A stretch of 64,000 nucleotides of DNA from Micrococcales bacterium. GTDB taxonomy: Bacteria > Actinomycetota > Actinomycetes > Actinomycetales > Microbacteriaceae. Below the pieces are notes generated by a model. It was given only the letters and a program-made list of their open reading frames with translations. It searched no databases and was not told the origin of the DNA. Within the stretch, counting starts at the first letter, position 1; each line of letters opens with the position of its first letter. The stretch lies in the NCBI GenBank assembly GCA_024639965.1, contig JAHEGC010000011.1, positions 12,263-76,262 of the forward strand, read 5' to 3'. The translations under genes and the position numbers were made by a program. Shown piece after piece: positions 3,257 through 40,743 of this stretch.

Positions 3257-4180
3257 ATGACCTACGCGTATTTAGGACCCGTCGGCACCTTTACGTGGAC
3301 CGCCCTCGGGCAGGTCGAGGAGGCCGCCGGTCGCGACTGGCTGGCCGTCAACAACGTCGGTGAGGCGCTCGCCGCGGTGTTCGACGGACGCGCCGAAGCG
3401 GCGATGATCGCGGTCGAAAACTCGGTCGAAGGTGGTGTTAGCGCGGCTCAGGACGCGCTCGCCGCTTCGACCGGCTTGCAAATCCTCGGCGAATACCTGG
3501 TACCCGTCAACTTCGACGTCGTCGTGCGACCGGGAACGGCGCTCGCGGACGTTCGCGTCGTCGTTGCGCACCCCGTCGCCTACGCCCAGTGCAGAGCGTG
3601 GCTCGATGCGAACCTGCCCAAGCACGAACACTTGCCGTCTACCTCCAACGTCGCCGCCGCCCGCGAGCTCATGGAGGGTGACCGAGGCGACGCGGCTATT
3701 GCACCCGCCGGTTTTGACGCGCACGCGGATCTCGACACCATCGCGGCTTCCATCGGAGACAACCCCACTGCGGTGACCCGTTTCGTTCTCATCGGCCGTC
3801 GTCGAGCGGTCGCTCCGCGCACGGGTACCGACAAGACGACCGTCATCGTGGAATTACCCGACGACCGACCCGGTGGCCTCCTCGAAATGCTCGAACAGTT
3901 CGCGACGCGCGGCGTCAACCTGTCGCTCCTCGAATCCCGTCCCATTGGCGATTCGCTCGGCCGGTACCGATTCGTCATCGACATCGACGGACATGTCGAC
4001 GACGAACGTGTCGCCGACGCCCTCCGCGGCCTTAAGCGATACAGCCCCGGCGTGCAGTTCCTCGGGTCGTACCGTCGTGCCGATGGCCACCGACCCGTAG
4101 TCCCCGTCCACTATTCGGACGAGGCGTTCGTCGATGCGCGTGAGTGGCTCGACCGTCTCGTCTCGGGAGCCGAGGAGTAA
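3257..4180 (+). CDS. pheA: Prephenate dehydratase
   Basis: PDT domain (YLGPVGTFT...) followed by a C-terminal ACT-like segment ([24 protein letters not shown]). Confidence 0.85.
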
Positions 4181-4182
4181 TC

Positions 4183-5448
4183 GTGATTGACCCTCAGATT
4201 CTTCGATCGAACCCGGATGTGGTGCGCGCGTCGCTTGCCGCCCGCCGGGACGACGAGTCCGTCGTCGATCGCGCCATTGCCGCCGATCTCGCCCGTCGTG
4301 ACGCCATCGCCGCGTTCGAGACGCTGCGCGCCGAACAGAACTCACACGGAAAACTCGTCGCGGCTGCTCCCAAGGAGGAGAAGGCGGCGCTCGTCGCCGC
4401 AGCGCAGGATCTCGCCGAGCGAGTAAAAGCCGCCGATCGCGCCGCGACCGACGCGGGCGAGGAATTCACCCGCATCGCCGGCGGCATCGGCAACGTCATC
4501 ATCGACGGTGTCCCCGCGGGTGGTGAAGAAGACTTCGTGACGCTGCGCGAGGTGGGAACCATTCCCACGTTCGACTTCGAACCGCGTGACCACCTCGAAC
4601 TGGGCGAAATGCTGGGCGCCATCGACATCGCTCGCGGAGTCAAGGTGTCGGGTTCGCGCTTTTACTTCCTGTCGGGTATCGGGGCACGCCTCGAAATCGC
4701 GCTCATGTCGCTCGCCCTCGACCGCGCACTCGCCGAGGGGTTCACGCCCCTCATCACGCCGACTCTCGTGAGCCCCGCGATCATGCAGGGAACGGGTTTC
4801 CTCGGCGCGCACTCCGACGAGATCTATTACCTTCCCGAAGACGAGTTGTATTTGACGGGCACAAGCGAGGTAGCTCTCGCCGGGTTCCACTCTGAGGAGA
4901 TCCTCGACCTCTCCGCCGGACCGAAACGTTACGCCGGCTGGTCGACCTGTTATCGCCGTGAGGCCGGGTCGTACGGCAAAGACACCCGCGGCATCCTCCG
5001 CGTTCACCAGTTCAACAAGCTCGAGATGTTCTCCTACTGCGCGCCGGCCGACGCCGAGGCAGAGCACGATCGTCTCGTCGGGTGGCAGGAGTCGATGTTG
5101 CAACTGCTTGGACTCAGTTACCGCGTTATTGATGTCGCCGCGGGCGACCTCGGTTCCTCGGCCGCACGCAAGTTCGACATCGAAGCGTGGATTCCGACCC
5201 AGGGCACGTACCGCGAGTTGACGTCGACCTCGAACTGCACCACGTTCCAGGCACGTCGACTCAACATCCGTCACCGTCCCGACGGTGGCGCGACGGAGAC
5301 GGTCGCGACGCTCAACGGAACCCTGGCGACGACGCGATGGCTCGTCGCATTACTCGAAACGCACCAGAACTCGGACGGCTCGGTCACGATCCCGGAGGCG
5401 TTGCGACCATACCTCGGCGGGCTCGCCGTGGCGGAACCCGTTTCGTGA
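4183..5448 (+). CDS. serS: Seryl-tRNA synthetase
   Basis: GTG 4183 gives the typical start [11 protein letters not shown]. Class II aaRS motifs follow ([33 protein letters not shown]). The 4144 start would overlap pheA. Confidence 0.93.
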
Positions 5449-6294: not shown

Positions 6295-6379
6295 GGAGGG
6301 CTGTCCGAGCGGCCGATGGAGCTGGTCTTGAAAACCAGTGGGCAGCAATGTCTCGTGGGTTCGAATCCCACGCCCTCCG
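6295..6379 (+). tRNA. tRNA-Ser (anticodon TGA)
   Basis: Hand-folded cloverleaf. Acceptor GGAGGGC/GCCCTCC, anticodon arm CTGGT-cTTGAaa-ACCAG, long variable arm, T arm GTGGG-TTCGAAT-CCCAC, discriminator G. Confidence 0.85.
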
Positions 6380-6400
6380 CGCCAAAACCCGAGGAGAACT

Positions 6401-7627
6401 GTGGCCGAGAAGAAGATTCGCACCCCCCGCTTCACTAAGCGTGCTGAGGCGACCCCGTTGCCTCGCCACGCCGCGTCTTCGCCGCGTCGCCCCTGGGCGA
6501 CCATTCTCCGCGTGATCGGGTTGACACTCGCCGTCGTTCTCGTGTCGGCTACCGCCGTCGTGGGAATCACCGCGTGGAAGATTCGTTCCTCCATCGTGAC
6601 CGAGGCAATCGGTGGCGAGGTGGGAACCGACGAAGAGATTCGCCTCGCGTCCATCGGTGAAATGCAGGGTGCGTTCAACATTCTCATCGTCGGGACTGAC
6701 ACCCGTGACGGTCAGCGCTCCCGTTTCGGAGACCTCTCCTCGGCCCTCAACGACGTCAACATCGTGGTTCACGTCTCCGAAGATCACACCCGTGCGACCG
6801 CGGTGTCAATCCCGCGCGACATGGTCGTCCCGCTTCCTGCCTGTCCCCGCCCCGACGGTTCGTCGAGCGGTGCGGCATCGGGCCTCCCCATCAACACAGC
6901 GCTGTCCTACGGAGGCCTCAACTGTGTCGTCTTGACGGTTCAGCAGCTCACCGGTCTCAAGATCAAATACGCCGGACTCGTCACCTTTGGTGGCGTTGCC
7001 GCACTCTCCAACGCCATCGGCGGTGTCGAGGTGTGTGTCAATGCCCCCATTCACGACCAATACACCGGCCTCGACCTCCCCAAAGCAGGCAAGTACACGC
7101 TCGCAGGCTGGCGCGCGCTCGCATTCCTCCGCTCGCGCCACGGCGTTGGTGATGGTTCCGACCTCGGTCGAATTTCTTCGCAGCAGGTTTACCTCTCGTC
7201 ACTCGTTCGCAAGATCCAAGACGAGGGAGTCCTCCTCAACCCCGCGATGGTTTATGGGCTCGCGTCGACGGCAGCTCAGTCGATGACCCTCTCGCGTTCG
7301 CTCTCCAGCGTCGACACGATGGTTGCGATGGCACTCGTGCTCAAGGACATCCCTCGCGAGAACATCATTTTCGCGCAGTACCCCGGCACGACGGGCGTCG
7401 GTGGAATCTACACGGGCAAGGTGGCGCCGCTGACGGAGGTCGCGAATACGCTCTTCGCCGCGATTCGTAAGGACAAACCGTTCCGACTCGCCACCGATTC
7501 CACGGGACCCGGTTCGACCATCAAGGGCAAGCCTAAGGATGCCGAAAGCGCCAAGGGCCCCGTGATTCCGGGAGTTTTGGGCCAGAGCGCCGCACAGGAG
7601 ACCTGTTCGGTGGCGTACCACTACTAG
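6401..7627 (+). CDS. LCP (LytR-CpsA-Psr) family cell-wall glycopolymer ligase
   Basis: GTG 6401 is preceded by GAGGAG. N-terminal TM anchor, then the LCP core (NILIVGTDTR..., SIPRDMVV, WRALAFLRSRH, DLGRISSQQ). Confidence 0.85.
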   Translation: MAEKKIRTPRFTKRAEATPLPRHAASSPRRPWATILRVIGLTLAVVLVSATAVVGITAWKIRSSIVTEAIGGEVGTDEEIRLASIGEMQGAFNILIVGTDTRDGQRSRFGDLSSALNDVNIVVHVSEDHTRATAVSIPRDMVVPLPACPRPDGSSSGAASGLPINTALSYGGLNCVVLTVQQLTGLKIKYAGLVTFGGVAALSNAIGGVEVCVNAPIHDQYTGLDLPKAGKYTLAGWRALAFLRSRHGVGDGSDLGRISSQQVYLSSLVRKIQDEGVLLNPAMVYGLASTAAQSMTLSRSLSSVDTMVAMALVLKDIPRENIIFAQYPGTTGVGGIYTGKVAPLTEVANTLFAAIRKDKPFRLATDSTGPGSTIKGKPKDAESAKGPVIPGVLGQSAAQETCSVAYHY

Positions 7628-7635
7628 GAGCCACA

Positions 7636-8562
7636 ATCTCCGTTCGGATTGTTCTTCACATCGGCCCCATGAAGACGGGGACCGAGGCGCTCTCTGCGCG
7701 CTTCGTCGGCGCCGACCTGCCACCGTCGCTCATCGTTCCTCACGGGGACACCTGGACCCAGCCGCGCGCCGATGTGATCAAGCACCCCGAAATCATTCAC
7801 CTCGGAAAGCGCCGCGGTGCCGAAATTGATCGGCGCATCGGTGAAGTCGTTGCCGAAGCGCGAACGCGAAACCTGCCGAAGGTCACGATCCTGTTCATCG
7901 CCGAAGGCGTGAACGTGGTTCGGCAATCGTGGCGAATCGCCGAGCGTCTCGCGTCTCACGCCGATGAGGTCGAAATTGTGTTGTTCGCTCGCGGTCAGGT
8001 TTCCGCCGTTCCAAGTTGGATCGCACAGCGTGTTCAGTCGTGGAAAGAGACCAAGTTCGCCTCTCTAGACTTCGAACTCGATACCATCCCCGCCGGATCG
8101 AGTTATCGATACAACGAAATCGCCGCAGCATGGACCGGGCCGACCCACACCCTGACCGTCATCCCGCACCTCGAATCGGATCGCAAGGGCGATGCGCTCA
8201 TGGCCCGATTCGCGTCGTGGGCCAAAATCCCCGTACCGGACGATTCGGGTTCCCGCGTCAACGAGTCACTTGGGCGCGACGACCTTGTCGAACTGGCGGA
8301 ATTCAAGCGTCGATGGGCATGGGCTCGGGTTACTCCCGTTTCCAACGCAATCGCGACGGTGTTGTTCAACCGTATGCGTGCGCGATTCCGTCGCAACCCG
8401 AGGCCTCGCTGGGCGCTCACGCCCGCACAGAAGCGGGCAATCGCGGACTCTTATCTCGAATCGAATCGCGATCTCAAGAAGTTGCTCGGAAGCCAAGCCC
8501 GACGTGACGACTGGAAAGCGTGGTTCACCGAGGTCGAGAAATTCGCCTCGAATTCTCGATAA
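7636..8562 (+). CDS. Sulfotransferase-fold paralogue 1 (divergent family; start codon uncertain)
   Basis: Paralogue of 8719..9732 and 9732..10742. Has a degenerate PAPS 5'-phosphosulfate-loop-like HIGPMKTGTE and a 3'-phosphate-type R-x7-S (FARGQVSAVPS). The first canonical start (ATG 7669) lies inside the loop motif. AGGAG-N5-ATC at 7626..7638 would restore the conserved N-terminus. Confidence 0.5.
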   Translation: MSVRIVLHIGPMKTGTEALSARFVGADLPPSLIVPHGDTWTQPRADVIKHPEIIHLGKRRGAEIDRRIGEVVAEARTRNLPKVTILFIAEGVNVVRQSWRIAERLASHADEVEIVLFARGQVSAVPSWIAQRVQSWKETKFASLDFELDTIPAGSSYRYNEIAAAWTGPTHTLTVIPHLESDRKGDALMARFASWAKIPVPDDSGSRVNESLGRDDLVELAEFKRRWAWARVTPVSNAIATVLFNRMRARFRRNPRPRWALTPAQKRAIADSYLESNRDLKKLLGSQARRDDWKAWFTEVEKFASNSR

Positions 8563-8578
8563 CATGGAGTGTTGTACT

Positions 8579-8668
8579 GGAGACGTCGCATAGTTCGGCC
8601 TAGTGCACCACCCTGCTAAGGTGGAGTTCCTTTTTTGGGAACCGTGGGTTCAAATCCCACCGTCTCCG
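8579..8668 (+). tRNA. tRNA-Ser (anticodon GCT)
   Basis: Acceptor GGAGACG/CGTCTCC, anticodon arm CCACC-cTGCTaa-GGTGG, long variable arm, T arm GTGGG-TTCAAAT-CCCAC, discriminator G. Confidence 0.85.
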
Positions 8669-8718
8669 CTCGTCGGGCTGTTGAGCCCCACTCAATGTTC
8701 ATTTCGGGAGGACGGCCC

Positions 8719-9732
8719 ATGTCGAAGCCCAAGGCGATAATTCACATCGGACCCATGAAAACCGGAACCACGGCGTTGGGGTACTACTTTTCCGCTGCAA
8801 CCCGAGAGGGAATCCTTCCCGACAACGTGATTTATCCGTCCGGCGATTTGTGGTTCCCCGCTGCCGGAAAAATCGTCAAGCACAACGCGTTGTTCGATTT
8901 CATCTCCGACGAGACAAACACTCCGCGTTTCCGCAAGACAGCGGTTCAGACTCCTTCCGCCGTCGAAGAGAAGGTCCGCTTGGCCGCGGAATTCGCCGCC
9001 GGCCGTGGACGGGGCGCCACCGTCGTGTTCATCAGCGAGACACTCTCGGGTCGAAAGAACTCGCCGGAGCTCGTCACCATGATGTTGAAGTATTTCGAAT
9101 CGATCACGCTTGTTCTCAGCATCCGTTCATTCGCTGCGTCGGGGATGTCCTTCCTCGTTCACCGAATCAAGGATTGGCGCATCGAGCAACACGATCTGGA
9201 CCTTCTCGCCATGCTCCGCACGGGCGGAGAAAACTTCGGTGAGCGTTTCGTTTCCCGTATCGAACGATGGAAGGCGATTCCGAAAACCACTCTGGTTCTC
9301 GTTCCCTATTTCGAACAAGAGAACGATGGCTATTCCAGTGTCGATCGCTTTTACTCGCTGCTCACCGGTTCACCAGCGCCTCGCCTCGCCGAGGATTTCG
9401 GGTCCAAGCGTGTGCATCCCAGCCTGCCGCTCAATTCCCTCAAGCGGCTGATCAGCGTAAAACGCATCGGCCATCGCTTCGGTACACGCAGCCCTTTGGC
9501 GAAACTCGCACAGCTCCTCTTCATGCGAATCCTCGAACGAGACCGTTCGAAATCGATGTATTCGGGATTCGGCGAGCGGAACGCGGCCAAAGGCGACTGG
9601 GAGCTGACCGCCGCTGAGCGTGATGAAATTCGGCGCGCGTACGCACCGTCGTACGCCGCAATCAGGAAGCAACTGGGGTCAACGGCGAACTCCGACGAAT
9701 GGGAGCGGTGGTTCGCCGCCGAGGGCGTGTGA
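8719..9732 (+). CDS. Sulfotransferase-fold paralogue 2 (divergent family)
   Basis: ATG 8719 follows GGGAGGA; the ORF-track start 8635 overlaps the tRNA. Motifs: IIHIGPMKTGTT (compare HIPKTGGT[ST] of family-2 sulfotransferases), R-x7-S in LSIRSFAASGMS, and the C-terminal DEWERWF shared with the other paralogues. Confidence 0.55.
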   Translation: MSKPKAIIHIGPMKTGTTALGYYFSAATREGILPDNVIYPSGDLWFPAAGKIVKHNALFDFISDETNTPRFRKTAVQTPSAVEEKVRLAAEFAAGRGRGATVVFISETLSGRKNSPELVTMMLKYFESITLVLSIRSFAASGMSFLVHRIKDWRIEQHDLDLLAMLRTGGENFGERFVSRIERWKAIPKTTLVLVPYFEQENDGYSSVDRFYSLLTGSPAPRLAEDFGSKRVHPSLPLNSLKRLISVKRIGHRFGTRSPLAKLAQLLFMRILERDRSKSMYSGFGERNAAKGDWELTAAERDEIRRAYAPSYAAIRKQLGSTANSDEWERWFAAEGV

Positions 9733-10742
9733 TGGCAGGCTTCGCTCGAGTCGTCGTTCATCTCGGCCCCATGAAAACCGGGACCTCGGCGTTCGCCGCT
9801 CACCTTTCGATGGCGTCACTCGATGGCACGCTTCCACGAAACATCATTTATCCGGTCAACGACCACTGGTTCCCAGCGACCAGCAAAATCGTCAAGCACC
9901 ATGATCTCGTCGAAATTGCGCCATTCGTGCAGCCCGACGGCACCGTCCACGAGCGACGCACCACCGTCACTCCGGCGATGGTGGAGGAAAAATTGACCGA
10001 GGTGGCACATGAAGCGCGCCGCCGCGGCGACACAACAGTGATCCTCGTCTGTGAATTGGCCGACCAATTGGCCGATCCCGAGCAATTAGGCGCCCGATTG
10101 AGCGCAATCTTCGACAAAGTCGACTTCGTCATCGTGGCGCGACAGCAAGCGGAAGCTTTGCCGTCACTGCTGGGCCAGCAGGCGCGCATGTGGAAGCGCA
10201 AGCAGGTTCGTTCGCTCCGCATTGCACCGTTCCTTCGGTACCACCTCACACAACATTCCTATGACTACTCCTATTTGTGGTCGAAGTGGGCGCGCAAGGG
10301 TTCCACGTATGGCCTTCACTTTGTTCCCTACGTCAGCGGCTCCGGCGGGGGAAACGCACTGAGCCAGAACATTTTCGACCGACTCGGCTTGGGAACCTAC
10401 CCACTTCATCCAGAACTCGTGGCCGGCCCACGCATTCACACCTCGTTCTCGCGCCTCGGGATGCACATGTTGATTGGCGCCAAACGGCTGGAGCGTGCAA
10501 TCGGGTGGCTCCCCGGCGGATCGCGCCTCGCCGAGCGAGTCTTCGAGCGGTTCTTGGGCTTTTGCCACGCGCAACCCCGTCGTCAGGGCGATAAATTCGT
10601 TCCGTGGCGCCTGTCGCAGGGGGACCGTCGAAAGGTCGTTGACGCCTATCGGGGGTCCAACAGCCGTTTCCGGGTCTCCATGGGAACCGACGCGTCCACC
10701 CCCGACTGGACCGCTTGGTTCGACACGGTGGAGGCGTCATGA
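9732..10742 (+). CDS. Sulfotransferase-fold paralogue 3 (divergent family)
   Basis: ATG 9732 overlaps the upstream TGA (TGATG). Motifs: VVHLGPMKTGTS, VARQQAEALPS (R-x7-S) and C-terminal PDWTAWF. Confidence 0.55.
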   Translation: MAGFARVVVHLGPMKTGTSAFAAHLSMASLDGTLPRNIIYPVNDHWFPATSKIVKHHDLVEIAPFVQPDGTVHERRTTVTPAMVEEKLTEVAHEARRRGDTTVILVCELADQLADPEQLGARLSAIFDKVDFVIVARQQAEALPSLLGQQARMWKRKQVRSLRIAPFLRYHLTQHSYDYSYLWSKWARKGSTYGLHFVPYVSGSGGGNALSQNIFDRLGLGTYPLHPELVAGPRIHTSFSRLGMHMLIGAKRLERAIGWLPGGSRLAERVFERFLGFCHAQPRRQGDKFVPWRLSQGDRRKVVDAYRGSNSRFRVSMGTDASTPDWTAWFDTVEAS

Positions 10743-12076
10743 CTCGGTCACGGTCGTCGGTTCCCTTCGTCCTTGACGTGACGTCGGTTTCTGCACTCAA
10801 TTTCACGACCGGGGTCCAGCGCGTCGTTCGCGAATATCTCCGCGTCAACCGCACGGCGGTCGATCTAGTACAGTACGACCACAAGAGTGACACGTGGCGT
10901 GTGATTCCCGAACTTCCCACCTTGGTCACGCGCGAACGCGACGGCGCCGCCGCACGGGTTCGCGTTCTTGCGGAGAAATCCTCGAGCGCCATGGTGCGTG
11001 AGGTGATGCGCCCGCGATTGAAGGCGTTCCTCCGCGAGCTCCCATTCGCCCGTCGCGGATACGAGTGGTGGAAACAGGTCAATGCACGACACCTGCAGGC
11101 ACAGAAAGTCGTTCAAACCTACAAGTTGTCACAGCAGCCGGAATGGCAGCCGAAGGCGGGACAAACGTATGTGATGCTCGACTTGCCGTTGCGCAAAGAG
11201 CACGCGATGGCGATGGAGGATCTCTTCCGTCGGCCCGAGGTGAAGTCGATGGTGTATCTCCACGATCTTTTCCCACTGTCGCACCGCCACCTGTTCGATC
11301 GCGCGGGACATCAACGCGCGCGAACCCTGCACCTCATGTACCTCGACGCGGTCGCTCGAGCCGACGCGGTGGTCGCGAATTCGAAATTCACTCTCGGACA
11401 ATATCGAGATTTCTGCCGCGTTCTCGAAGAGAACTCTTACGAAACGCAAAAGACCGCGGTTGTGCACCTTCCTTGGCCGCACCTGGCGAAGTCGGGTGTT
11501 CCGAACCCCGGAATCGCGAACGTGATGTTCGGCTCGGCGGCGCTCGCGGTGCTGTTGATCGGTCAACTCGATAAGCGCAAGAACTTCCAGGTCGTCGTTC
11601 GAGCGGTCAAGACGTTGATCACCGAAGGTGTCGACGTCCGTCTCGGTATCCTCGCGGGGTACTCCACGCTGACTGACGACGTGCTTAAGGCGGAACTCGA
11701 CGAGTGCACCGACGAGCAACGATCGAGAATCTCAATCGAGGGTGTCGTCACCGATGAGGAACTCGTCGCGATATACGACGCCGCTCACGTGGTCGCTGTC
11801 CCGTCGGTCGCCGAAGGATTCGGACTTCCCGTGATCGAGGCGTTGAGTCGAGGCAAGCGTGTGGTGGCGTCCAGGGCGTCGGCACTGACTGAACTGGGCG
11901 ATGTCTTTGGACACGATGCTGTCACGGTCGTGGACCCCTACGATTCTGACGAATGGGCGAAGAAACTTCGTGCCACCGCGAAACGGGCACCACTCGCTCC
12001 GATGGGCATTCCCGCGTCGATCCCCTCCGATTGGGCGGATTTCCATGCGCGGCTTCTCGCCGTCGCGTCGAGCTAA
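10739..12076 (+). CDS. Glycosyltransferase family 4 (GT1-clan, retaining)
   Basis: ATG 10739 overlaps the upstream stop (ATGA). N-terminal FVLDVTSV...TGVQRVVRE and C-terminal VPSVAEGFGLPVIEAL (E-x7-E type). Confidence 0.8.
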   Translation: MTRSRSSVPFVLDVTSVSALNFTTGVQRVVREYLRVNRTAVDLVQYDHKSDTWRVIPELPTLVTRERDGAAARVRVLAEKSSSAMVREVMRPRLKAFLRELPFARRGYEWWKQVNARHLQAQKVVQTYKLSQQPEWQPKAGQTYVMLDLPLRKEHAMAMEDLFRRPEVKSMVYLHDLFPLSHRHLFDRAGHQRARTLHLMYLDAVARADAVVANSKFTLGQYRDFCRVLEENSYETQKTAVVHLPWPHLAKSGVPNPGIANVMFGSAALAVLLIGQLDKRKNFQVVVRAVKTLITEGVDVRLGILAGYSTLTDDVLKAELDECTDEQRSRISIEGVVTDEELVAIYDAAHVVAVPSVAEGFGLPVIEALSRGKRVVASRASALTELGDVFGHDAVTVVDPYDSDEWAKKLRATAKRAPLAPMGIPASIPSDWADFHARLLAVASS

Positions 12077-12987
12077 TCCTCTTCTTCGTCGGCGTCGAAC
12101 CCGTCCGGGCGCACCGCGCGGGCGGCCATGTTGGCGACAACCTCGGCGACCGTGATGAGTTTGAAGATCGATCGCATCGACAATGCCATGAGGACCAGCA
12201 GGAGCTTGTTGAACGCCTCGTCGACTCCCGACTCGACGTACATCCACGATTCGATGAACGCCGCACCGAGGGACAGAGGAAAGACGACGGCGAGGAGTGG
12301 CCAAATGATCGTGAATCGCTGCACGGGAAGCTTCGCGCGAAGGAGCATACGCTCGGTGTGTACGTGGATTTCGGTTTCCGCCTCGGCGTTACCCGCCGCC
12401 ATTAGTTCGTCGTGCATTTTGGCGTGAGCGACATCATTCTGTTCGAAAACCACGAGCCATTTCTTGACCGCTATGGCGAGATAGAACACGACCGACAGCA
12501 AGATAACCGAGATGATGATCGCCGACGGAATGTAGTTGTAGAGGAACAACGCGACGATGACTCCGAGCACGGTACCGACCGCCGTGGCAAGAAGCATCGT
12601 ACGGCCGAGCAGACGACCGCGCGCCATCATCTTCCACCGTCGTTGCTGATTCGTCATCGTGTCGGAGGACGTTCCGAGTTCGGCGAGCGAGATCTTTTTG
12701 AGGTTGAGGGTGTTGCGGCGTCGAAGGAAGTAGCGCAAGAGCCGCTGACCGTAGCCAGTGACCACCGCGGCGGACAATGCGATCAGCGCGAAGTCCCACG
12801 GCGGAAGCGCCCGCAACGCTCGGGAGAACGACAGCAGCCACGAGAACTGACGGATCCACTCCGGCACGTCGTTCGCTAGCAAAACACCGAGCAAGTAAAG
12901 GCCCGAAAAGCTCAACACGAACCCGATGAGGGTACGAATCGCAATCTCCCCGCCGAATCGGCGGGTGAGGAACAGTAGTTCGGGCAT
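12073..12987 (-). CDS. Hypothetical 6-TM membrane protein with acidic C-terminal tail
   Basis: 304 aa with about six hydrophobic helices, a charged central loop (KKISLAELGTSSDTMTNQQRRWK) and the tail DGFDADEEED. The ATG lies 5 nt downstream of the cysNC stop on the same strand. I recognise no family. Confidence 0.6.
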   Translation of the reverse strand: MPELLFLTRRFGGEIAIRTLIGFVLSFSGLYLLGVLLANDVPEWIRQFSWLLSFSRALRALPPWDFALIALSAAVVTGYGQRLLRYFLRRRNTLNLKKISLAELGTSSDTMTNQQRRWKMMARGRLLGRTMLLATAVGTVLGVIVALFLYNYIPSAIIISVILLSVVFYLAIAVKKWLVVFEQNDVAHAKMHDELMAAGNAEAETEIHVHTERMLLRAKLPVQRFTIIWPLLAVVFPLSLGAAFIESWMYVESGVDEAFNKLLLVLMALSMRSIFKLITVAEVVANMAARAVRPDGFDADEEED

Positions 12988-12992
12988 AGCGC

Positions 12993-14810
12993 TTAGATTC
13001 GACGGGCGAGAATCAGCCCGAGGAGCGTTTGCACGGACTCGTTCACGGGCTGTTCACCGTCGAGAGTGACGTCCGCGGCGAGCGGGGCTTCGTAACCCTG
13101 TCCGACACCCGTCATCTGCATCGTCGAATCCGCTTGGCTGCGGGCGTAAAGACCCTTCGGGTCGCGCTGCATGCAGACCTCGAGCGGAGTGTCAACGAAG
13201 ACCTCGAAGAAGTCGCCCTCGGCGAATCGTTCCTTCGCCATTTCGCGGTCTTCGCGGAACGGCGAGACGAGCGACACGATGACGACGAGTCCGGCTTCCA
13301 TCATGAGCTCGGCGACGCGCGCAACGCGACGCACGTTCTCTTTACGGTCTTCCGGCGAGAATCCGAGATCCTCGGAAAGGGTCGAGCGAACGGTGTCCCC
13401 GTCGAGGGTCGTCGAGCGAATGCCCATGGTCATGAGTGTCTTTTCGAGTTCGTCGGCGACGGTCGACTTTCCCGATCCGGGAAGTCCGGTGAGCCACAGA
13501 ACGCAGGAGCGGAGTCCGTTGAGTGCTTCGCGCTCGGCACGGCCGACAGCGAAGTCGTGCTTGACGACATCCGATTCACGAACGAGCGGGTGCTTCGACA
13601 TTCCCGCCGCGACGGTCATCGCGGTGAGTCGGTCAACGAGGATGAATCCGCCGGTGTGCATCGACTCCGCATACGGGTCGAGCAGAATGGGGCGGTCGGT
13701 GACAATCTCGACGCGACCAATCTCGTTCACCTCGAGGGCGTGGCCGCGGGCCTGCTCGCCGGTCGTGATGTCGCGAACGTAGCGAACGGTTTCTACGCGC
13801 GCGGGAACCTCGATCGGTCCGGCACGAAGAATGTACGACGCCTGGGGGTCGAGCGGCTTCGTATCAATCCACACCATGTCGGCGAGGTGAGCGCGCGACG
13901 AGGGCACCTCACCCTTCGCCCCGACGATGACGTCACCACGAGAGATGTCAACCTCGCGGTCGAGCGTGATGTGAACAGCTTGACCTTCGGCTGCATCCTT
14001 GGACTCGTTCGGAGCGTAGATCCCCTCGACGACGGCCTCGGTGAGGGCGGGCCACACGCGAATGGTGTCGCCAACCTTGACCGATCCGCGGGCGATGGTT
14101 CCCGAATACCAGCGGACGATGCCCGCCTTGGAAACAAACTGAACCGGGAGACGAAGCGATCCGTCGCCCGCCGAGTGGGAGAACGTGCGCTTCTGGTCGA
14201 GCGTGTCAAGAATCGTGACCTTGTCCGCCCACGCCATGTTCTCGGACGGACGGGTGACGTTGTCTCCCGTGAGTCCCGAAACGGGGATGAAAGTGAGATC
14301 CTCGAAGCCAAACTGGTCGAAGCGACGGGTCAGTTCCTCGACGATTCCGTCGAAGACACCCTTGTCGAAACCGACCGCGTCCATCTTGTTGACCGCGACG
14401 ATGATGTGCTTGACGCCCATGAGCGAGTTGATCGCGGCGTGACGGACCGACTGGTCGCGAACACCCTTCGCGGCATCGACGAGAAGAATTCCCATGTCGG
14501 CCTCACTCGCGGCCACGGCCATGTTGCGGGTGTATTGCTCGTGACCGGGCGAGTCGGCGAGAATCGCGCGGCGACCCGAGGGGAGATAGACGTGGCGGTG
14601 TGCCACATCGATCGTGATGCCCTGTTCGCGCTCGGATTCAAGACCGTCGGTCAGTTGCGAGAAGTCGACCTCGCCGTTCGACAGGCGACGGGTGTTGTCG
14701 ATCTCGTCGAGCGGGACCGAGTTGGTCTCGACGAGGAGTCGACCGAGCACGGTGGACTTTCCGTCGTCGACGGCTCCACAAACAACGATGCGAACGAGTG
14801 CGTCGGACAT
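12993..14810 (-). CDS. cysNC: Bifunctional sulfate adenylyltransferase subunit 1 / adenylylsulfate (APS) kinase
   Basis: N-terminal GTPase (GAVDDGKST, DSPGHEQY, NKMD). C-terminal APS kinase (LTGLPGSGKST, LDGDTVR, DLGFSPEDRKENVRR, DPKGLYA). Confidence 0.92.
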   Translation of the reverse strand: MSDALVRIVVCGAVDDGKSTVLGRLLVETNSVPLDEIDNTRRLSNGEVDFSQLTDGLESEREQGITIDVAHRHVYLPSGRRAILADSPGHEQYTRNMAVAASEADMGILLVDAAKGVRDQSVRHAAINSLMGVKHIIVAVNKMDAVGFDKGVFDGIVEELTRRFDQFGFEDLTFIPVSGLTGDNVTRPSENMAWADKVTILDTLDQKRTFSHSAGDGSLRLPVQFVSKAGIVRWYSGTIARGSVKVGDTIRVWPALTEAVVEGIYAPNESKDAAEGQAVHITLDREVDISRGDVIVGAKGEVPSSRAHLADMVWIDTKPLDPQASYILRAGPIEVPARVETVRYVRDITTGEQARGHALEVNEIGRVEIVTDRPILLDPYAESMHTGGFILVDRLTAMTVAAGMSKHPLVRESDVVKHDFAVGRAEREALNGLRSCVLWLTGLPGSGKSTVADELEKTLMTMGIRSTTLDGDTVRSTLSEDLGFSPEDRKENVRRVARVAELMMEAGLVVIVSLVSPFREDREMAKERFAEGDFFEVFVDTPLEVCMQRDPKGLYARSQADSTMQMTGVGQGYEAPLAADVTLDGEQPVNESVQTLLGLILARRI

Positions 14811-15784
14811 CAGAAATACCCCTCGTGCTTCTTGCGTTCCATGGACGAAGCGCCCTTGCCGTCGATGAGTCGACCGGCGCGCTCCGAGGTAGTTGACCGC
14901 GAGAGTTCGTCGATGATCTCGTCGAGCGAGCTCGCTTCACCTTCATCGGCCGCGGTGAGCGGGTAGCACCCGAGGGTGCGGAAACGGATGCGGCGCATGA
15001 CCGTCGACTCGCCCGGCTCGAGCGGGTAGCGGTCGTCATCGATCATGATGAGCTGGCCGTTGCGCTCGATGGTCGGGCGCTCCGCCGAGAAGTAGAGCGG
15101 GACGACTTCGAGATTCTCGCGACGGATGTACTTCCACACGTCGAGCTCGGTCCAGTTCGAGATGGGGAACGCGCGCATCGTCTGGTTCGGCTTGAGCGTC
15201 GAGTTGACGGTGTGCCAGAACTCCGGGCGCTGGCTCGACGGGTCCCAGGCGTGGCCGGGCTCGCGGAGGCTGAACATGCGCTCCTTGGCGCGCGAGCGCT
15301 CTTCGTCACGGCGAGCTCCACCGAGAGCGACGTCGTACCCGCCCGCATCGAGTGCGGCGCGGAGCGCGACGGTCTTCATCAGGCGGGTGTACTCGTCCGA
15401 ACCGTGAGTGAAGGGGGTGATTTTGTCGCCGCGACCGTCGGGGTTCGTGTACACGACCAAGTTGAGGTTGTTGTCGCGCGCAATGCGGTCGCGGAACTCG
15501 ATCATCTCGCGGAACTTCCACGTGGTGTCGATGTGGAGGACAGGGAAGGGAACGGGGGCGGGGGCGAAGGCCTTCACCGCGAGGTGAAGCAGAACTGTCG
15601 AATCCTTACCGATCGAGTAAAGAATGACGGGGTTCTGGAAAGCGCTGGCGGCCTCGCGAATGGCCCAAATCGCCTCGGCCTCGAGTGCGTCGAGGACGGC
15701 GTTTTCGTCGTTCGTGGTCTTGGCATTCACGGAATCAAGCCTACCGTCTCTGACCCTCGCCACCCGTTCCCCTCCATCAATCAT
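14810..15784 (-). CDS. cysD: Sulfate adenylyltransferase subunit 2
   Basis: PAPS-reductase-fold ATP sulfurylase small subunit (YSIGKDSTVLLHL, GARRDEERSRAKER, RFRTLGCYPLT). Its stop overlaps the cysNC start, and its start overlaps the permease stop by 8 nt. Confidence 0.9.
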   Translation of the reverse strand: MIDGGERVARVRDGRLDSVNAKTTNDENAVLDALEAEAIWAIREAASAFQNPVILYSIGKDSTVLLHLAVKAFAPAPVPFPVLHIDTTWKFREMIEFRDRIARDNNLNLVVYTNPDGRGDKITPFTHGSDEYTRLMKTVALRAALDAGGYDVALGGARRDEERSRAKERMFSLREPGHAWDPSSQRPEFWHTVNSTLKPNQTMRAFPISNWTELDVWKYIRRENLEVVPLYFSAERPTIERNGQLIMIDDDRYPLEPGESTVMRRIRFRTLGCYPLTAADEGEASSLDEIIDELSRSTTSERAGRLIDGKGASSMERKKHEGYF

Positions 15785-16601
15785 CGATCGCGAGACCGCG
15801 ATTTCGGCGAATTCGACGCGAAATCGACCCGAACACGCCGTCGACGATCATGCCGATGATGAGGATGACAATCATCGTGGCGATGAGCTCCGGAACCTTC
15901 GACATCTGACGAGCGAAGTCGAGCGTCGTACCGAGCGACGGCGTCTCGGCGATGATGACGAGAAGTTCACCCGCCATCAAGCTTCGCCACGCGAACGACC
16001 AACCCTGCACGAGCCCCGCGACGTAGGTGGGAAGCGCCGCGGGGAGAACAATGTCCCGGTACAGGGCGATGGGGCCAGCGCCGAGCACACGACCGAGCCG
16101 TGTGAAAGCCGGCGGCACGTGGTCGATTCCCGCGATGACGCCGTTCGCGATGGATGGCCCAGCGCCGAGCACAACGACGAAGAGGATTGCTTGCTCGTTG
16201 AGTCCGAACACGAGAATCGCGAGCGGGAACCACGCAATCGACGGCATGACCTGGAGTCCCGTGATGACGTTTCCCACGGCGAGGCGGAGCGGCTTCACGC
16301 GCGCGACCGCAATTCCGACGATGGATCCGAGAACGAGGGCCAGAATGAATCCGGTACCCGCGCGGGTCATCGTGGTTTTCACCGCGAGCCAGAAGCGTTC
16401 GGTTCCCACCATTTGATAGAGCGCTCCGAAGGTGTCACCCGGAGACGGCAACACGTAGCTCGGGCGCCAGCCGGAAAGAAAGAGCGCCTCCCACGCACCG
16501 ATGACCAGCGCGATGGCGAAGAGCTTCGGCCAACCCCACGACCAGGCGGCCGCGAGGCGTGCGCCGGCAGTGCGAGTGGCAGCGATGACGGTTTCGCTCA
16601 T
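15777..16601 (-). CDS. ABC transporter permease, NitT/TauT (aliphatic sulfonate/taurine-type) family
   Basis: 274 aa, about 6 TM, BPD_transp_1-like core. Overlaps the ATPase gene by 4 nt. Confidence 0.8.
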   Translation of the reverse strand: MSETVIAATRTAGARLAAAWSWGWPKLFAIALVIGAWEALFLSGWRPSYVLPSPGDTFGALYQMVGTERFWLAVKTTMTRAGTGFILALVLGSIVGIAVARVKPLRLAVGNVITGLQVMPSIAWFPLAILVFGLNEQAILFVVVLGAGPSIANGVIAGIDHVPPAFTRLGRVLGAGPIALYRDIVLPAALPTYVAGLVQGWSFAWRSLMAGELLVIIAETPSLGTTLDFARQMSKVPELIATMIVILIIGMIVDGVFGSISRRIRRNRGLAIDD

Positions 16602-17359
16602 GAGTCAGCTCCTTGAAGAACGGCCTGGCCGGCCTTGAGTCGGTTGGTGAGATCGGCGGCGCGCGTGGCGATGTCATTAGAGTCCATCTCGCGGGGTCGG
16701 GCCAGCGGAACGGACTGTTCGTGTACCACCCTCCCCGGCCGGCTTCCCATGAGAATGACGCGGTCGCCGAGGCGAACCGCTTCGCGCATGTTGTGCGTGA
16801 CGAACACGACCGTGAGGTTTTGGTCGCGCACGATGCTCTCGATCTCGTCGTGGAGATGATCGCGAGTCATCGCGTCGAGCGCTCCGAGCGGTTCATCCAT
16901 GAGAACAATGCGTGCACCTTGCGCAAGGCAACGCGCCAACGCGACGCGCTGCCGCATCCCACCCGAGAGTTCGTGCGGGCGTTTGTCGGCCCATTCGCCG
17001 AGGCGAACGATTGCGAGCAGTTCGTTGACACGTGTTTCACGGTCGGCGCGAGGAACTCCGGCGTAGGCGAGGGCGAGTTCGATGTTCTTGCGAGCGCTTA
17101 GCCACGGAAGCAAGGTCGCCTCCTGGAACATCAGTGCGACCTTGCCGTTGACGGTGATGGTTCCCGAGGTCGGCTTATCGAGCCCCGCGAACAGGTTGAG
17201 GAGCGTCGACTTGCCACAGCCCGATGCTCCAACGATGGTGACGAATTCTCCCGCGCGAATTGTCATGTCGACACCGGAGAGCGCGACGGTTGCCGCGCCC
17301 TCCGGGCCGAATGACTTGGTGACGCTATCCGCGCGGAGAATGATCTCCGCGTTAGCCAT
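16598..17359 (-). CDS. ABC transporter ATP-binding protein (SsuB/TauB-like)
   Basis: Walker A GASGCGKST, signature LSGGMRQRV, Walker B IVLMDEP, H-loop VTHNM. Confidence 0.88.
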   Translation of the reverse strand: MANAEIILRADSVTKSFGPEGAATVALSGVDMTIRAGEFVTIVGASGCGKSTLLNLFAGLDKPTSGTITVNGKVALMFQEATLLPWLSARKNIELALAYAGVPRADRETRVNELLAIVRLGEWADKRPHELSGGMRQRVALARCLAQGARIVLMDEPLGALDAMTRDHLHDEIESIVRDQNLTVVFVTHNMREAVRLGDRVILMGSRPGRVVHEQSVPLARPREMDSNDIATRAADLTNRLKAGQAVLQGADS

Positions 17360-18435
17360 TACTGAATCGCATCCTCTCCGCGCTCGGCACGAACCGCGTT
17401 GAGCAGGTCGAGCGAGTAGAGCGTTCCCGGCAAGCCGCCGGCGGCGTCGATGCCCGACTGCTCGAGGAGCCCAGCGGACACGGCGTGTTCGGCCGAGGTC
17501 ACGAGGGTGTCCTTGAGCGGGTCAGCGGTGAACGTCACGTTCTCCCACGCCGCGTCGAGAATGGCGGGGTCGATCGACGAGCCGGTGAGGCCGGCGAGGG
17601 CGAGGTTGACGGCGTCCTTGGCGGCCGCGGGGTCACTCGCGATGAGGTCGAGAGCGGCGAGGTGCCCCTTGATCAACGCGGTCACCGCGTCGGGGTGCTG
17701 GTCGATGAAGTCGGTGCGGCAGAGGATGACGGTCGTGACGAACTCACCGTTCGGCCACAGATCGGCTTCGTTCTGGAGAACGTGTGCACCGTTCGCGACG
17801 AACGACGACACCCAGGGCTCGGGAACCCACGCGCCGTCGATGTCCCCCGACGAGAACGCGGCGAGTGCGTCGGAGTTCGACTGGGGCTTGATGGAGACAT
17901 CTCCGCCCCCGTCGACGTCGGCGGTGAGTCCCTGATCGGTGAGCCAGTTCCGCGCCGCGACATCCTGAGTGTTCCCGAGTTGCGGTGTGGCGATGGTCAA
18001 GCCAGCAAGATCGGCGGCGGTGTTGACCCCGTCACGCACAACGAGGGCAGCCCCGCCCGAGGTGGAACCGGCAACAATTCGAACCGCCGCACCCTCGGAC
18101 TGAACGTACGCATTGATCGCGGGGTTCGGCCCGATGTATGAGCAATCGAGCGAATCGGCGAAGAGCGCGGTGACAACATCCGGACCAGCGTTGAACGCGG
18201 TCGGGGTAAGGGTGAGGTCGAGCGCCTTGAGCTCGGTCTTGAACAGACCCTTTTGTGTAGCGATGAGGCCCGGGGCGTGCGTGAGGTTGGGAAAGTACCC
18301 AAGGCGAACCGTGGTGATCTCTGGCACAGCGGGGGAGTCATTCGTGGTGGGTGAGGTCGTCGCACAACCGGCGACGGCAAGAGCGGCGACGGTCGCGAGT
18401 GCGATCGAAGCCCCAAGACGGGAGTTGTTTTTCAT
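17359..18435 (-). CDS. ABC transporter substrate-binding lipoprotein (SsuA/NMT1-like)
   Basis: Signal peptide with lipobox LAVAGC. The NMT1/THI5-like periplasmic binding fold is inferred from context and length. Confidence 0.75.
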   Translation of the reverse strand: MKNNSRLGASIALATVAALAVAGCATTSPTTNDSPAVPEITTVRLGYFPNLTHAPGLIATQKGLFKTELKALDLTLTPTAFNAGPDVVTALFADSLDCSYIGPNPAINAYVQSEGAAVRIVAGSTSGGAALVVRDGVNTAADLAGLTIATPQLGNTQDVAARNWLTDQGLTADVDGGGDVSIKPQSNSDALAAFSSGDIDGAWVPEPWVSSFVANGAHVLQNEADLWPNGEFVTTVILCRTDFIDQHPDAVTALIKGHLAALDLIASDPAAAKDAVNLALAGLTGSSIDPAILDAAWENVTFTADPLKDTLVTSAEHAVSAGLLEQSGIDAAGGLPGTLYSLDLLNAVRAERGEDAIQ

Positions 18436-18585
18436 GTTGTCCTTTCCGATAGTTTGTCTATCGTGTTAGTAGAGAATATAGACAAGATGGGGAAACGTGT
18501 CAAGTCGGCACGGACGGCGTGTGTCGGCGCGCCAGGTTGCCGTAACATTGAGGAGAAATTTCCCCTTCGAAAAAGGATTAGTAAC

Positions 18586-22826: not shown

Positions 22827-23900
22827 ATGACATCGATTTCCGTTCAAGTGATGAAGCCGGTACTCCCCGCGCTCGATGTCGTGACCCCTTATCTCGCCGA
22901 AGTCTACGAATCGGGTATCTTCTCTAACCACGGTCCCAAGGTTCGCGCCCTCGAGGAGCGCTACGCGACGTGGTTCAACGTGTCACCCGAGCAGGTCGTC
23001 GCGATCTCTAACGGAACTGTGGCCATCGCGGCCGCCGCGCTCTGGGAAGACAACCCCACATACCTCATCCCCGAATGGACTTTTCCCGCCACCGCGATGG
23101 GTCCTCTCGAGGTCGGTGCGACCATCGAGTTCCGCGACGTTCACCCGACCGAGTGGACACTCACCGTCACGGATGACGATCGCCGCAACGCCAATTCTGT
23201 TGTTCCCGTGGTCGTCGCACCGTTTGGACATCCGATCGACCTTGCAGAGTGGTCCGATTTCCCCCGCGGAATCGTCGATGCGGCGGCGTGCGCGGGTAAC
23301 CGACCCGACCTCTCCGGCATGGGGCCGGGGTGGAGCGCAACCATCTCACTGCACGCCACCAAGGTGCTCGGGTGCGGTGAGGGTGGCCTCGTGATTTTCG
23401 GAGATGTCGCCCGCGCGAAGATCGCCCGGGAATGGATCAACTTCGGTTTCTCCGGCACACGCGTGACGAACCGCGTCGGTACGAACGGGAAGATGTCGGA
23501 GTTCGCCGCATCGTTCGCGCTCGCGGCACTCGACGGAGCCGAGACCGAGCTCGCCGAATGGAAGTCGGTGCGCGAGCGCGCCACCGCAATCAACACCGAA
23601 CTCGGGTTCAACGGCGGACCGATGCCCGCCGACAGCCGCATCCCCTACTGGCTCGTCGCGGTGGACACTGCAGATGAGGCGGCACGCGTTGCCGAGTCGC
23701 TCGACGCAGCGGGAATCCAGACGCGCAAATGGTGGCCGGCGGCACTGACCTCGACGAAGCCGTTCCACGACATGACCACATCGGGCAACGCGGTGGCGAC
23801 CCACCTGGCGGACACCGTGCTGGGACTTCCGATGTTCCGCGAATTGTCGGACGCGCAGTTCGGTCACATCCGCACCACGCTCGCCGACCTTCGGAAGTAG
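22827..23900 (+). CDS. DegT/DnrJ/EryC1/StrS-family PLP-dependent (sugar) aminotransferase
   Basis: PLP Asp in IVDAAACAG, Schiff-base Lys in SLHATKVLGCGEGG, and family-typical length. Confidence 0.85.
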   Translation: MTSISVQVMKPVLPALDVVTPYLAEVYESGIFSNHGPKVRALEERYATWFNVSPEQVVAISNGTVAIAAAALWEDNPTYLIPEWTFPATAMGPLEVGATIEFRDVHPTEWTLTVTDDDRRNANSVVPVVVAPFGHPIDLAEWSDFPRGIVDAAACAGNRPDLSGMGPGWSATISLHATKVLGCGEGGLVIFGDVARAKIAREWINFGFSGTRVTNRVGTNGKMSEFAASFALAALDGAETELAEWKSVRERATAINTELGFNGGPMPADSRIPYWLVAVDTADEAARVAESLDAAGIQTRKWWPAALTSTKPFHDMTTSGNAVATHLADTVLGLPMFRELSDAQFGHIRTTLADLRK

Positions 23901-23907
23901 TTCGCCG

Positions 23908-26007: not shown

Positions 26008-26080
26008 GCGCCCGTAGCTCAACGGATAGAGTATCTGACTACGGATCAGACGGTTGGGGGTTCGAATCCCTCCGGGCGCG
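26008..26080 (+). tRNA. tRNA-Arg (anticodon ACG)
   Basis: Acceptor GCGCCCG/CGGGCGC, D arm AGCTCAACGGATAGAG, anticodon loop cTACGGa, T loop TTCGAAT. Confidence 0.9.
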
Positions 26081-26082
26081 CT

Positions 26083-37406: not shown

Positions 37407-37416
37407 TTCAGACACG

Positions 37417-39486: not shown

Positions 39487-39550
39487 CGGATCGCTCTTTC
39501 GGGTTGCGGGCATCGAACGAACGGGATGCAACTCATCGTGCCGTGAAACG

Positions 39551-40525: not shown

Positions 40526-40743
40526 GCCGTGGCATCACGACGTGCCAAATATAGCACTTGGGCGTTGTGCCGGCGGGGATGTCTCGTCGCCATATCGGGC
40601 ACTGGTGCGGGAATTGACGAAAGTTGAGCACGGTCATGGTGTCTCTCAGTGCGCTCGCGTGGCGATCGGGAATTTGGGCTCCCGCCTACCGTCTCGGGGC
40701 GCCGTGGCGTATTCCCGGCCGCTCGAACGACGGCATCCTTCCG

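Follow-up and report, generated by a model that had tools for sequence, protein, structure and literature searches.

What is the function of three related, unannotated proteins that are encoded beside the sulfate-activation genes of a member of the Microbacteriaceae? The locus that raises this question lies in a stretch of 64,000 nucleotides (nt) from a Micrococcales bacterium (Microbacteriaceae; contig JAHEGC010000011.1 of assembly GCA_024639965.1, positions 12,263–76,262 of the forward strand), which is hereafter called the window and whose own coordinates are used throughout. The three proteins, paralogues 1 to 3, are probably cytoplasmic sulfotransferases that depend on 3′-phosphoadenosine 5′-phosphosulfate (PAPS). 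They would form a divergent subfamily, restricted to the Microbacteriaceae, of a wider family with the signature HIGxxKTGT[ST]xxQ, and would act as part of a sulfation cassette. Two canonical sulfotransferases of the window served as comparators. The genes concerned, with lengths in amino acids (aa), are as follows.

7636–8562, + strand: paralogue 1, sulfotransferase-like, 308 aa; loop HIGPMKTGTE; R-x7-S string at 7984–8016; putative ATC start
8719–9732, + strand: paralogue 2, sulfotransferase-like, 337 aa; ATG start with GGGAGG 7 nt upstream; R-x7-S string at 9118–9150
9732–10742, + strand: paralogue 3, sulfotransferase-like, 336 aa; protein chosen for modelling; R-x7-S string at 10134–10166
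23908–24792, + strand: canonical Sulfotransfer_3 protein (E 1.2e-30); 5′-phosphosulfate-binding loop GSPRSGTT; VRDVRDCFTS
40624–41472, + strand: second canonical Sulfotransfer_3/_1 protein (E 3.1e-20); VRDPRDLVAS

Shared motifs and conservation of the paralogues

A search of all six reading frames of the window for the heptapeptide GPMKTGT yields three sites only, 7663, 8749 and 9765. A MAFFT alignment of the three proteins gave pairwise identities of 28–30% and 51 invariant columns, which include the H, G, P, M, K, T, G and T of the N-terminal motif, the Arg and Ser of R-x7-S, and the C-terminal W..WF. The original prediction, made from the DNA alone, had recognised three paralogues by H-x-G-P-M-K-T-G-T, R-x7-S and a Trp-rich C-terminus, and all of these strings were located as quoted. 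The two canonical proteins that it had cited for the same R-x7-S spacing proved to be genuine members of Sulfotransfer_3.

Conservation was assessed over 45 proteins, drawn from the window and from 13 related genomes, and residue numbers follow paralogue 3. G12, P13, K15, T16, G17, T18, P41, W46, E108, R137, S145, P199, K251, W292, W326 and W329 are invariant in all 45, and H10 is present in 44. The residue at the Met position of GPMKTGT is variable in close relatives (I, V, T, E, Q, N, H or A). The Pro-Met insertion in the loop that had been proposed does not exist, since GSPRSGTT and the loop GAAKCGTS of Protein Data Bank (PDB) entry 3rnl share the two-residue spacing between Gly and Lys/Arg; only the Pro is shifted.

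The 45 proteins fall into four orthologous groups, three of which are represented in the window. Identity inside groups is 60–64% for three of them and 76% for the fourth, and between groups it is 21–28%. Members of the fourth group are about 355 aa long, carry HLGP[IV]KTGTT, lack a K55-H56 pair, and are encoded between paralogue 3 and the downstream gene for a family 4 glycosyltransferase (GT4). This fourth paralogue is absent from the window and is found in nine relatives (L001, at 10972–12042; L006, L007, L009–L011 and L013–L015). Paralogue 1 is missing from two related genomes (L006 and L007), in which a tRNA-Ser(GCT) gene stands directly between paralogue 2 and a gene of the LytR-CpsA-Psr (LCP) family. 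K15, E108, R137 and S145 are retained across all four groups. Ratios of nonsynonymous to synonymous substitution rates (dN/dS) of 0.07–0.18 over all groups, and of 0.13–0.18 for paralogue 1, indicate purifying selection. On these identities and ratios, the copies are ancient orthologous groups under purifying selection and not the product of a recent amplification. The idea of a recent three-fold amplification is thus to be abandoned, as is the description of the three reading frames as consecutive, because a tRNA-Ser(GCT) gene (8579–8669) separates paralogues 1 and 2.

Placement in the sulfotransferase superfamily

Searches of Pfam and NCBIfam with paralogues 1–3 returned no relevant family even at E up to 1. 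The only Pfam report at that threshold was a chance CBM39 match to paralogue 3, with none for paralogues 1 and 2. No PDB sequence was matched by the single proteins, by their three-sequence alignment or by a 46-sequence family profile. As no direct Pfam, NCBIfam or PDB match exists, the lineage is truly unannotated, and because the gathering thresholds of Pfam Sulfotransfer_3 (PF13469) and Sulfotransfer_1 (PF00685) are not reached, the paralogues are placed in the superfamily only and not in these families. A word-indexed search retrieved 65 orthologues of paralogue 3, all of which are unnamed or labelled “hypothetical” and none of which has a Pfam domain. In the literature on 3rnl and on sulfated wall polymers of actinobacteria, no characterised member of the family was found.

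The relationship to recognised sulfotransferases is found only transitively. The family profile (A2) was used in an exhaustive hidden Markov model (HMM) search over 1.84 billion representatives, which gave 266 proteins at E up to 1e-3, of which 34 were at E up to 1e-30. The weaker matches share L-H-I-G-x-x-K-T-G-T-[ST]-x-x-Q at the N-terminus and constitute a wider family, some members of which carry the UniRef/NCBI name “sulfotransferase domain-containing protein”. An alignment of these distant relatives (A3) matched A2 in hhalign with a probability of 100% (E 4.8e-40) over 288 columns, with KTGT, E108 and R..S in register. Among 76 members of A3 that were scanned, Sulfotransfer_3 was found in 14 (best E 2.9e-9), Sulfotransfer_1 in 10 and Sulfotransfer_4 in 6, and no other family, kinases and nucleoside triphosphatases (NTPases) included, recurs. 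A single-domain bridging protein (P0149) scores 27.3 bits against Sulfotransfer_1 over residues 7–220, the gathering threshold being 22, and also aligns to A2 over residues 2–185 (hhalign 95.4%, E 1.9e-8).

Compared with the PDB, the A3 profile matched 3rnl first (E 2.4e-12), followed by SULT2A8, SULT2B1, SULT4A1 and 3-O-sulfotransferases, and 26 of the 28 matches listed were sulfotransferases. The A3 segment “ylRrqdealeS” pairs with LRNPVDRAFS of 3rnl and with IRNPRDVLVS of SULT2A8, a form of the classical 3′-phosphate motif of the cytosolic enzymes. Through the A2–A3 alignments, K15-T-G-T of paralogue 3 comes to lie opposite KTGTT of relatives and K-C-G-T-S of 3rnl, and V-A-R137-x7-S145 opposite LRNPVDRAFS and IRNPRDVLVS.

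This chain from A2 through A3 to Sulfotransfer_1, Sulfotransfer_3, Sulfotransfer_4 and 3rnl places the paralogues, as originally predicted, in the sulfotransferase superfamily, as very divergent members of a poorly described lineage. The profile comparison proposed at that time yielded no direct Pfam match of the paralogues themselves, and it was the wider family that matched Sulfotransfer_1, Sulfotransfer_3 and Sulfotransfer_4. Judged by these alignments, they add unannotated members to a known superfamily, and their mechanism would be the one expected of it.

Predicted structure

Two elements are hallmarks of the PAPS-binding fold: a strand-loop-helix with conserved Gly and Lys that binds the 5′-phosphosulfate, and a strand-turn-helix that binds the 3′-phosphate (PMC11625862). 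Both are found in the paralogues when the model is combined with the invariant residues. In the AlphaFold2 (AF2) model of paralogue 3 (predicted local distance difference test, pLDDT, 91.2; predicted template-modelling score, pTM, 0.89), GPMKTGT lies between the strand 5–10 and the helix 18–31, R137 ends the strand 129–136, and S145 lies within the helix 139–152. The invariant E108 is at the end of the strand 101–106 and is the counterpart of a near-invariant “SSE” in the wider family. The catalytic base beside the PAPS site of this superfamily is a His or a Glu; H56 is not kept in the fourth paralogue group.

When the model was compared with the PDB in Foldseek, the best template-modelling (TM) scores were to sulfotransferases, namely 3rnl (0.38/0.50; probability 1.00, E 3.1e-3) and NDST1 (0.40); Teg14 scored 0.30. 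In the model, the loop and the R-x7-S element are placed as in the fold; the Foldseek matches to sulfotransferases are weak and interleaved with kinases. Taken alone, the Foldseek comparison of this model is ambiguous between sulfotransferases and P-loop kinases.

Gene neighbourhood and conserved synteny

The paralogues are embedded in the following genes, in which CysN, CysC and CysD are the enzymes that activate sulfate via adenosine 5′-phosphosulfate (APS).

4144–5448: serS, conserved flank of the locus
6295–6380, + strand: tRNA-Ser(TGA), predicted by ARAGORN; in the same place in related loci and an upstream marker of the locus
about 6401–7627, + strand: LCP family gene (Pfam LytR_cpsA_psr, E 6.1e-34); start estimated
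8579–8669, + strand: tRNA-Ser(GCT), predicted by ARAGORN; kept here in 12 related loci
10739–12076, + strand: GT4-family glycosyltransferase (Pfam Glyco_trans_1_4, E 1.9e-17; Glycos_transf_1, E 6.6e-15)
12073–12987, − strand: all-helical membrane protein of 304 aa without Pfam or NCBIfam match
12993–14810, − strand: CysN-CysC fusion, the GTPase subunit of ATP sulfurylase joined to APS kinase (GTP_EFTU, E 1.1e-38; APS_kinase, E 4.1e-59)
14810–15784, − strand: CysD, the small subunit of ATP sulfurylase (Pfam PAPS_reduct domain, E 4.6e-52)

The genes for the membrane protein, CysN-CysC and CysD are on the − strand and converge on the + strand block of paralogues and GT4. The TGA stop of paralogue 2 and the ATG of paralogue 3 have one base in common (TGATG, 9730–9734), paralogue 3 and the GT4 gene overlap by ATGA (10739–10742), and GGAGG precedes the GT4 ATG by 4 nt. 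The translational coupling that had been suggested for the block accordingly holds for paralogue 2, paralogue 3 and GT4, and does not extend to paralogue 1. The GC content of third codon positions (GC3) is 0.69–0.72 in paralogues 1–3 and the GT4 gene and 0.77–0.83 in cysNC and cysD. The preference for A/T-ending codons noticed by eye is therefore modest, because other genes of the window, three in number, go down to about 0.655. A scan for promoters and terminators gave no signal above chance. The listed start of the LCP reading frame, a GTG at 6338, falls within the tRNA-Ser(TGA) gene, so the true start must be downstream of the tRNA and is estimated at about 6401.

All 13 related genomes are freshwater or environmental metagenome-assembled genomes labelled Microbacteriaceae or Actinomycetota. 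Their gene order is serS, HAD, tRNA, LCP, paralogues, GT4, (GT61), membrane protein, cysNC and cysD. With one more distant actinobacterial contig (L018) included, each module has two to four paralogues; L018 retains two, together with GT4, the membrane protein, TauE, cysNC and cysD. Identity to the proteins of the window is 85–95% for serS (the top value coming from a partial match) and 86–90% for cysNC and cysD, and it falls to 43–62% for paralogues 1–3, GT4 and the membrane protein (7636–12987). By these identities, the locus reads as a fast-evolving cassette in a conserved frame, a pattern typical of loci for exposed surface structures.

The membrane protein was modelled by AF2 with a pLDDT of 76.6. 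Its top 50 Foldseek matches are all exporters of the ATP-binding cassette (ABC) type, with TM scores of 0.34–0.55 (MsbA, PCAT1, IrtAB and CydDC-type), and the resemblance is to the transmembrane domain of type IV ABC exporters only, without the ATPase domain. The gene is syntenic in 11 of the 13 related genomes and in L018. On the strength of the model, the protein is a candidate flippase or exporter of the product.

Two other interpretations of the block were rejected. A recently acquired island at the tRNA gene does not agree with the absence of an integrase, with the presence of the block in 13 of 13 related genomes, or with a GC3 that is 5–10 points below that of the cys genes and within the range of the window. 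A role in anti-phage defence was considered because the GT4 protein matches the Pfam family “GT4-conflict”; PADLOC finds no defence family in the paralogues, GT4 or the membrane protein.

Other genes of the window

Several further genes adjoin the locus or lie elsewhere in the window. An ABC importer (15777–18435, − strand), consisting of a BPD_transp_1 permease, an ATPase and an NMT1/TauA-type binding protein, lies between cysD and a gene for an 800-aa protein. It may supply sulfonate or sulfate; the related loci L003 and L007 lack it in this position. The 800-aa protein (18454–20856, + strand) has no Pfam match and ends in LASTG, a hydrophobic stretch and RRRRA, resembling a sortase signal; its position next to cysD is conserved in L003 and L007.

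A second small sulfation and glycosylation group is found at 22827–25940 (+ strand), where a DegT aminotransferase, a Sulfotransfer_3 protein and a GT61 protein are encoded, followed by tRNA-Arg (26008–26081). In L001, a distant GT61 (28% identical) instead directly follows GT4. The canonical sulfotransferase of this group (23908–24792) is possibly part of the same pathway as the paralogues. The second canonical sulfotransferase has the loop G-C-G-H-G-G-T-T, in which the customary Lys or Arg is missing, and is overlapped on the opposite strand by an open reading frame (ORF) of 312 aa (40522–41460) without a family match. Two large ORFs (570 and 720 aa; 35730–39579, − strand) have no Pfam match and adjoin GT2, a protein resembling LPG_synthase_TM and the second sulfotransferase; they may represent further envelope-glycan machinery.

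Start codon of paralogue 1

Paralogue 1 has neither ATG nor GTG nor TTG between the upstream stop and the Met within its motif, and mechanical ORF calling places the start at that Met (7669). The ninth codon ahead of the motif Gly is an ATC (7636), and an AGGAG 5 nt upstream of it overlaps the TAG with which the LCP gene ends. ATC occupies this codon in nine of nine paralogue 1 orthologues from the related genomes that were fetched, and two more orthologues have TTG (L023) or ATG (L025) at the same codon. An AGGA(G) overlapping the LCP TAG, 5–8 nt upstream of the codon, is present at 7625–7638 of the window, at 2990–3003 of L023 and at 990–1003 of L025. In L003–L005, an in-frame stop three codons upstream of the ATC excludes any canonical start. 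The nine codons encode I-G-V-R-I-V-[LV]-H-I and differ between orthologues at synonymous sites, and they are therefore translated. In the remaining paralogues, the start lies one or two codons farther ahead of the motif Gly.

On balance, these sequence comparisons favour initiation of paralogue 1 at a conserved, non-canonical AUC, and re-initiation following termination of the LCP gene may contribute. Conserved AUC starts are rare: in E. coli, the activity of AUC is 1–2% of that of AUG, and only two non-canonical starts have been confirmed there (10.1101/063800). Two competing explanations were discarded. A fusion of LytR and paralogue 1 by stop readthrough is contradicted by the reading frame of the TAG, which is that of paralogue 1 in L003–L005 but not in the window or in L023. 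As for a CTG or TTG start 20 codons ahead of the motif, what is conserved there is the C-terminus of LytR, and in L003–L005 an in-frame stop lies in between. Public gene calls for paralogue 1 orthologues (P0293–P0310) begin at the Met inside GPMKTGT in 13 of 19 cases; as they were called from this internal Met, these 13 deposited proteins lack the first β-strand and half of the PAPS-binding loop.

Proposed pathway and its significance

Since the first strand is located at the N-terminus and there is no signal peptide or membrane segment, the paralogues would act in the cytoplasm, where PAPS is made. Actinobacteria assimilate sulfur via APS, so that APS kinase and its product PAPS mainly serve sulfotransferases. 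The conserved adjacency of the paralogues to CysD and to CysN-CysC, with its APS kinase domain, is indirect support for the use of PAPS, which these neighbours would provide. We infer the following scheme, which covers the use of PAPS and the catalytic base, the acceptor and the regiospecificity of its sulfation, and the export step. The strand-loop-helix H10-x-G12-P-M-K15-T-G-T18 would hold the 5′-phosphosulfate, with K15 stabilising the leaving phosphate, while the strand-turn-helix with R137 and S145 would hold the 3′-phosphate. The catalytic base is likely to be E108, where the adjacent strand ends. GT4, together with other transferases, would build the sugar acceptor, either a lipid-linked saccharide (wall glycopolymer) or a glycolipid, and each paralogue would sulfate a different position or residue of it. 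The sulfated product would then be translocated outward by the MsbA-like membrane protein, and the LCP enzyme may subsequently attach it to the wall.

By family placement and gene neighbourhood, these freshwater Microbacteriaceae thus probably decorate a sugar compound of the envelope with several sulfate groups. A more elaborate picture is less likely than not: abundant planktonic Microbacteriaceae of fresh waters would be coated with a multiply sulfated envelope glycan or glycolipid made by a compact, fast-evolving cassette of three to four regiospecific sulfotransferases of an unrecognised subfamily, a GT4, an ATPase-less MsbA-like flippase and a dedicated PAPS supply, with output of the first gene kept low by a conserved AUC start that is coupled to LCP termination. 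If this were true, envelope sulfation would become experimentally tractable in Gram-positive heterotrophs, in which sulfated polysaccharides are regarded as rare. Recent papers describe sulfated polysaccharides as uncommon in bacteria outside the cyanobacteria and as only suspected in actinomycetes (PMC13390465; PMC8205485). The conserved sulfotransferase-GT4-PAPS cassette is a concrete and testable candidate for sulfation in freshwater Microbacteriaceae. Pfam, NCBIfam and the source databases are blind to the family, its close homologues all being labelled “hypothetical protein”, and genome surveys consequently overlook this capacity for sulfation; the annotation gap would be closed by a profile made from these sequences. 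The interest of the locus resides in that gap, in a clean and conserved cassette from a group whose sulfated envelope polymers are unproven (PMC13390465), in the ATPase-less exporter-like partner and in the conserved AUC start, none of which is a conceptual surprise.

Alternative explanations

Several results weigh against a PAPS-dependent sulfation cassette. Neither the proteins nor the family profile have a direct significant match to a sulfotransferase in Pfam, NCBIfam or the PDB. Alignment of the family by hhalign to the two canonical sulfotransferases of the window, taken as single sequences, was not significant, and the top alignment to the first of them (23908–24792) pairs both R-x7-S segments. 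No Foldseek match has E < 1e-3, and the lowest values are shared with a zeta-toxin kinase (1.4e-3), MeaB and adenylate kinase. In L018 the LCP gene is not adjacent, with three unrelated genes separating LytR from the cassette, and a wall-polymer acceptor is therefore only one option. The Foldseek matches, and a hydrophobic strand followed by the invariant E108 that looks like a Walker B motif, could point to P-loop kinases or NTPases (zeta toxin- or nucleoside-monophosphate-kinase-like) that phosphorylate a glycan instead of sulfating it. This is very improbable. The Walker A consensus GxxxxGK[ST] does not accommodate G12-PMKT-G17-T18-S19, and because its Lys position is a Thr in all 45 members, the kinase alternative fails on sequence, whereas K-T-G-T-S fits the K-[ST]-G-T-[ST] of sulfotransferases. 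No kinase or NTPase family was encountered among the 76 relatives or the PDB matches of the A3 profile, nor, beyond a chance 13-bit match, in Pfam and NCBIfam searches with the paralogues themselves; a kinase-class placement, which the original prediction had named as the contrary outcome, was thus not what the profiles returned. TM scores to kinases (0.22–0.30) are below those to sulfotransferases (0.38–0.40), and the conserved neighbouring genes make PAPS.

The sulfotransferase fold itself would also be compatible with at least one copy that is not a catalytic PAPS-dependent O-sulfotransferase and is instead a scaffold, a pseudo-enzyme, a decaying paralogue 1, or an enzyme with another donor or chemistry. 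Paralogue 1 lacks an ATG, GTG or TTG ahead of its first strand, and Glu replaces Thr/Ser after its KTGT; the fourth group has lost K55-H56; and the absence of paralogue 1 from L006 and L007, and of paralogue 4 from the window, implies that individual copies are dispensable. Loss of function is nevertheless improbable, as all four groups keep K15, E108, R137 and S145, the dN/dS of paralogue 1 is similar to that of the other paralogues, its nine codons upstream of the motif Gly are conserved as protein with synonymous changes, and orthologues exist with ATG or TTG at the start codon. A more serious competitor, although still judged unlikely, accepts the paralogues as true sulfotransferases and has them act not on a cell-wall polymer but on a small glycolipid or a soluble metabolite, as Stf0 does in mycobacterial sulfolipid-1 synthesis, with the LCP neighbour explained by coincidental synteny. 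The genes serS, HAD, tRNA and LytR are housekeeping synteny, and GT4, the membrane protein, cysNC and cysD stay attached to the cassette in L018 despite its separation from LytR; moreover, GT4 enzymes also make glycolipids, and MsbA-type domains flip lipids. Set against this, three to four distinct sulfotransferases per single GT4 suggest a multiply sulfated glycan, the window also has two more sulfotransferases and GT61, GT2 and DegT genes typical of polymer synthesis, and evolution of the block is far more rapid than that of its flanks, which is often so in loci for surface polymers, although none of these points is decisive. As to the reading of the paralogues as PAPS-dependent sulfotransferases of a sulfation cassette, the comparisons show that they belong to the superfamily, that their motifs align in register and contain invariant residues, that selection on them is purifying and that their synteny is conserved.

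Comparison with known systems

The closest structural counterpart is 3rnl, a structural-genomics entry for a sulfotransferase of Alicyclobacillus acidocaldarius, for which no published function was found in a literature search. It has the same G-x-x-K-x-G-T-[ST] loop (VGAAKCGTSS) and the same strand-R-x7-S motif (LRNPVDRAFS), and it gives both the best TM score of the paralogue 3 model and the best profile match of the bridging family. The profile of the window family, however, does not reach 3rnl directly, and the window family differs in having some 70 residues more between helix 1 and the strand of E108 and a long C-terminal helical region with the invariant W292, W326 and W329. Sulfotransfer_3 and Sulfotransfer_1, the copies in the window included, have the same PAPS-binding elements, the same R-x7-S spacing and an identical G-x-x-K/R spacing (GSPRSGTT compared with GPMKTGTS), whereas the window family has its Pro one position earlier, a His before the loop and a different C-terminal domain.

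In Mycobacterium tuberculosis, CysDNC, with a CysN-CysC fusion, supplies PAPS to the cytoplasmic Stf carbohydrate sulfotransferases, and the product sulfolipid-1 is exported to the envelope. The likeness lies in an actinobacterial CysN-CysC fusion combined with dedicated, in the window putative, sulfotransferases. Unlike in M. tuberculosis, the sulfotransferases are clustered with cysDNC, they are three to four paralogues of a different subfamily accompanied by a GT4, and an ATPase-less, ABC-exporter-like membrane protein stands in place of MmpL8, Pks2 and PapA. Several paralogous or distinct sulfotransferases per glycan backbone, the backbone being made by associated glycosyltransferases, are also found in animal heparan sulfate synthesis (NST, 2-OST, 3-OST and 6-OST) and in the cyanobacterial synechan xss cluster (PMC8205485). 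These systems differ from the window in subfamilies and export routes, and regiospecificity in the window is something that we infer from the gene set. In Pontimonas salivibrio, a streamlined marine member of the Microbacteriaceae and thus of the same bacterial family, sulfate activation has been read as serving PAPS-dependent sulfotransferases for wall modification and not amino-acid synthesis; sulfation of the wall is predicted there too, but via annotated sulfotransferases (PMC6106888).

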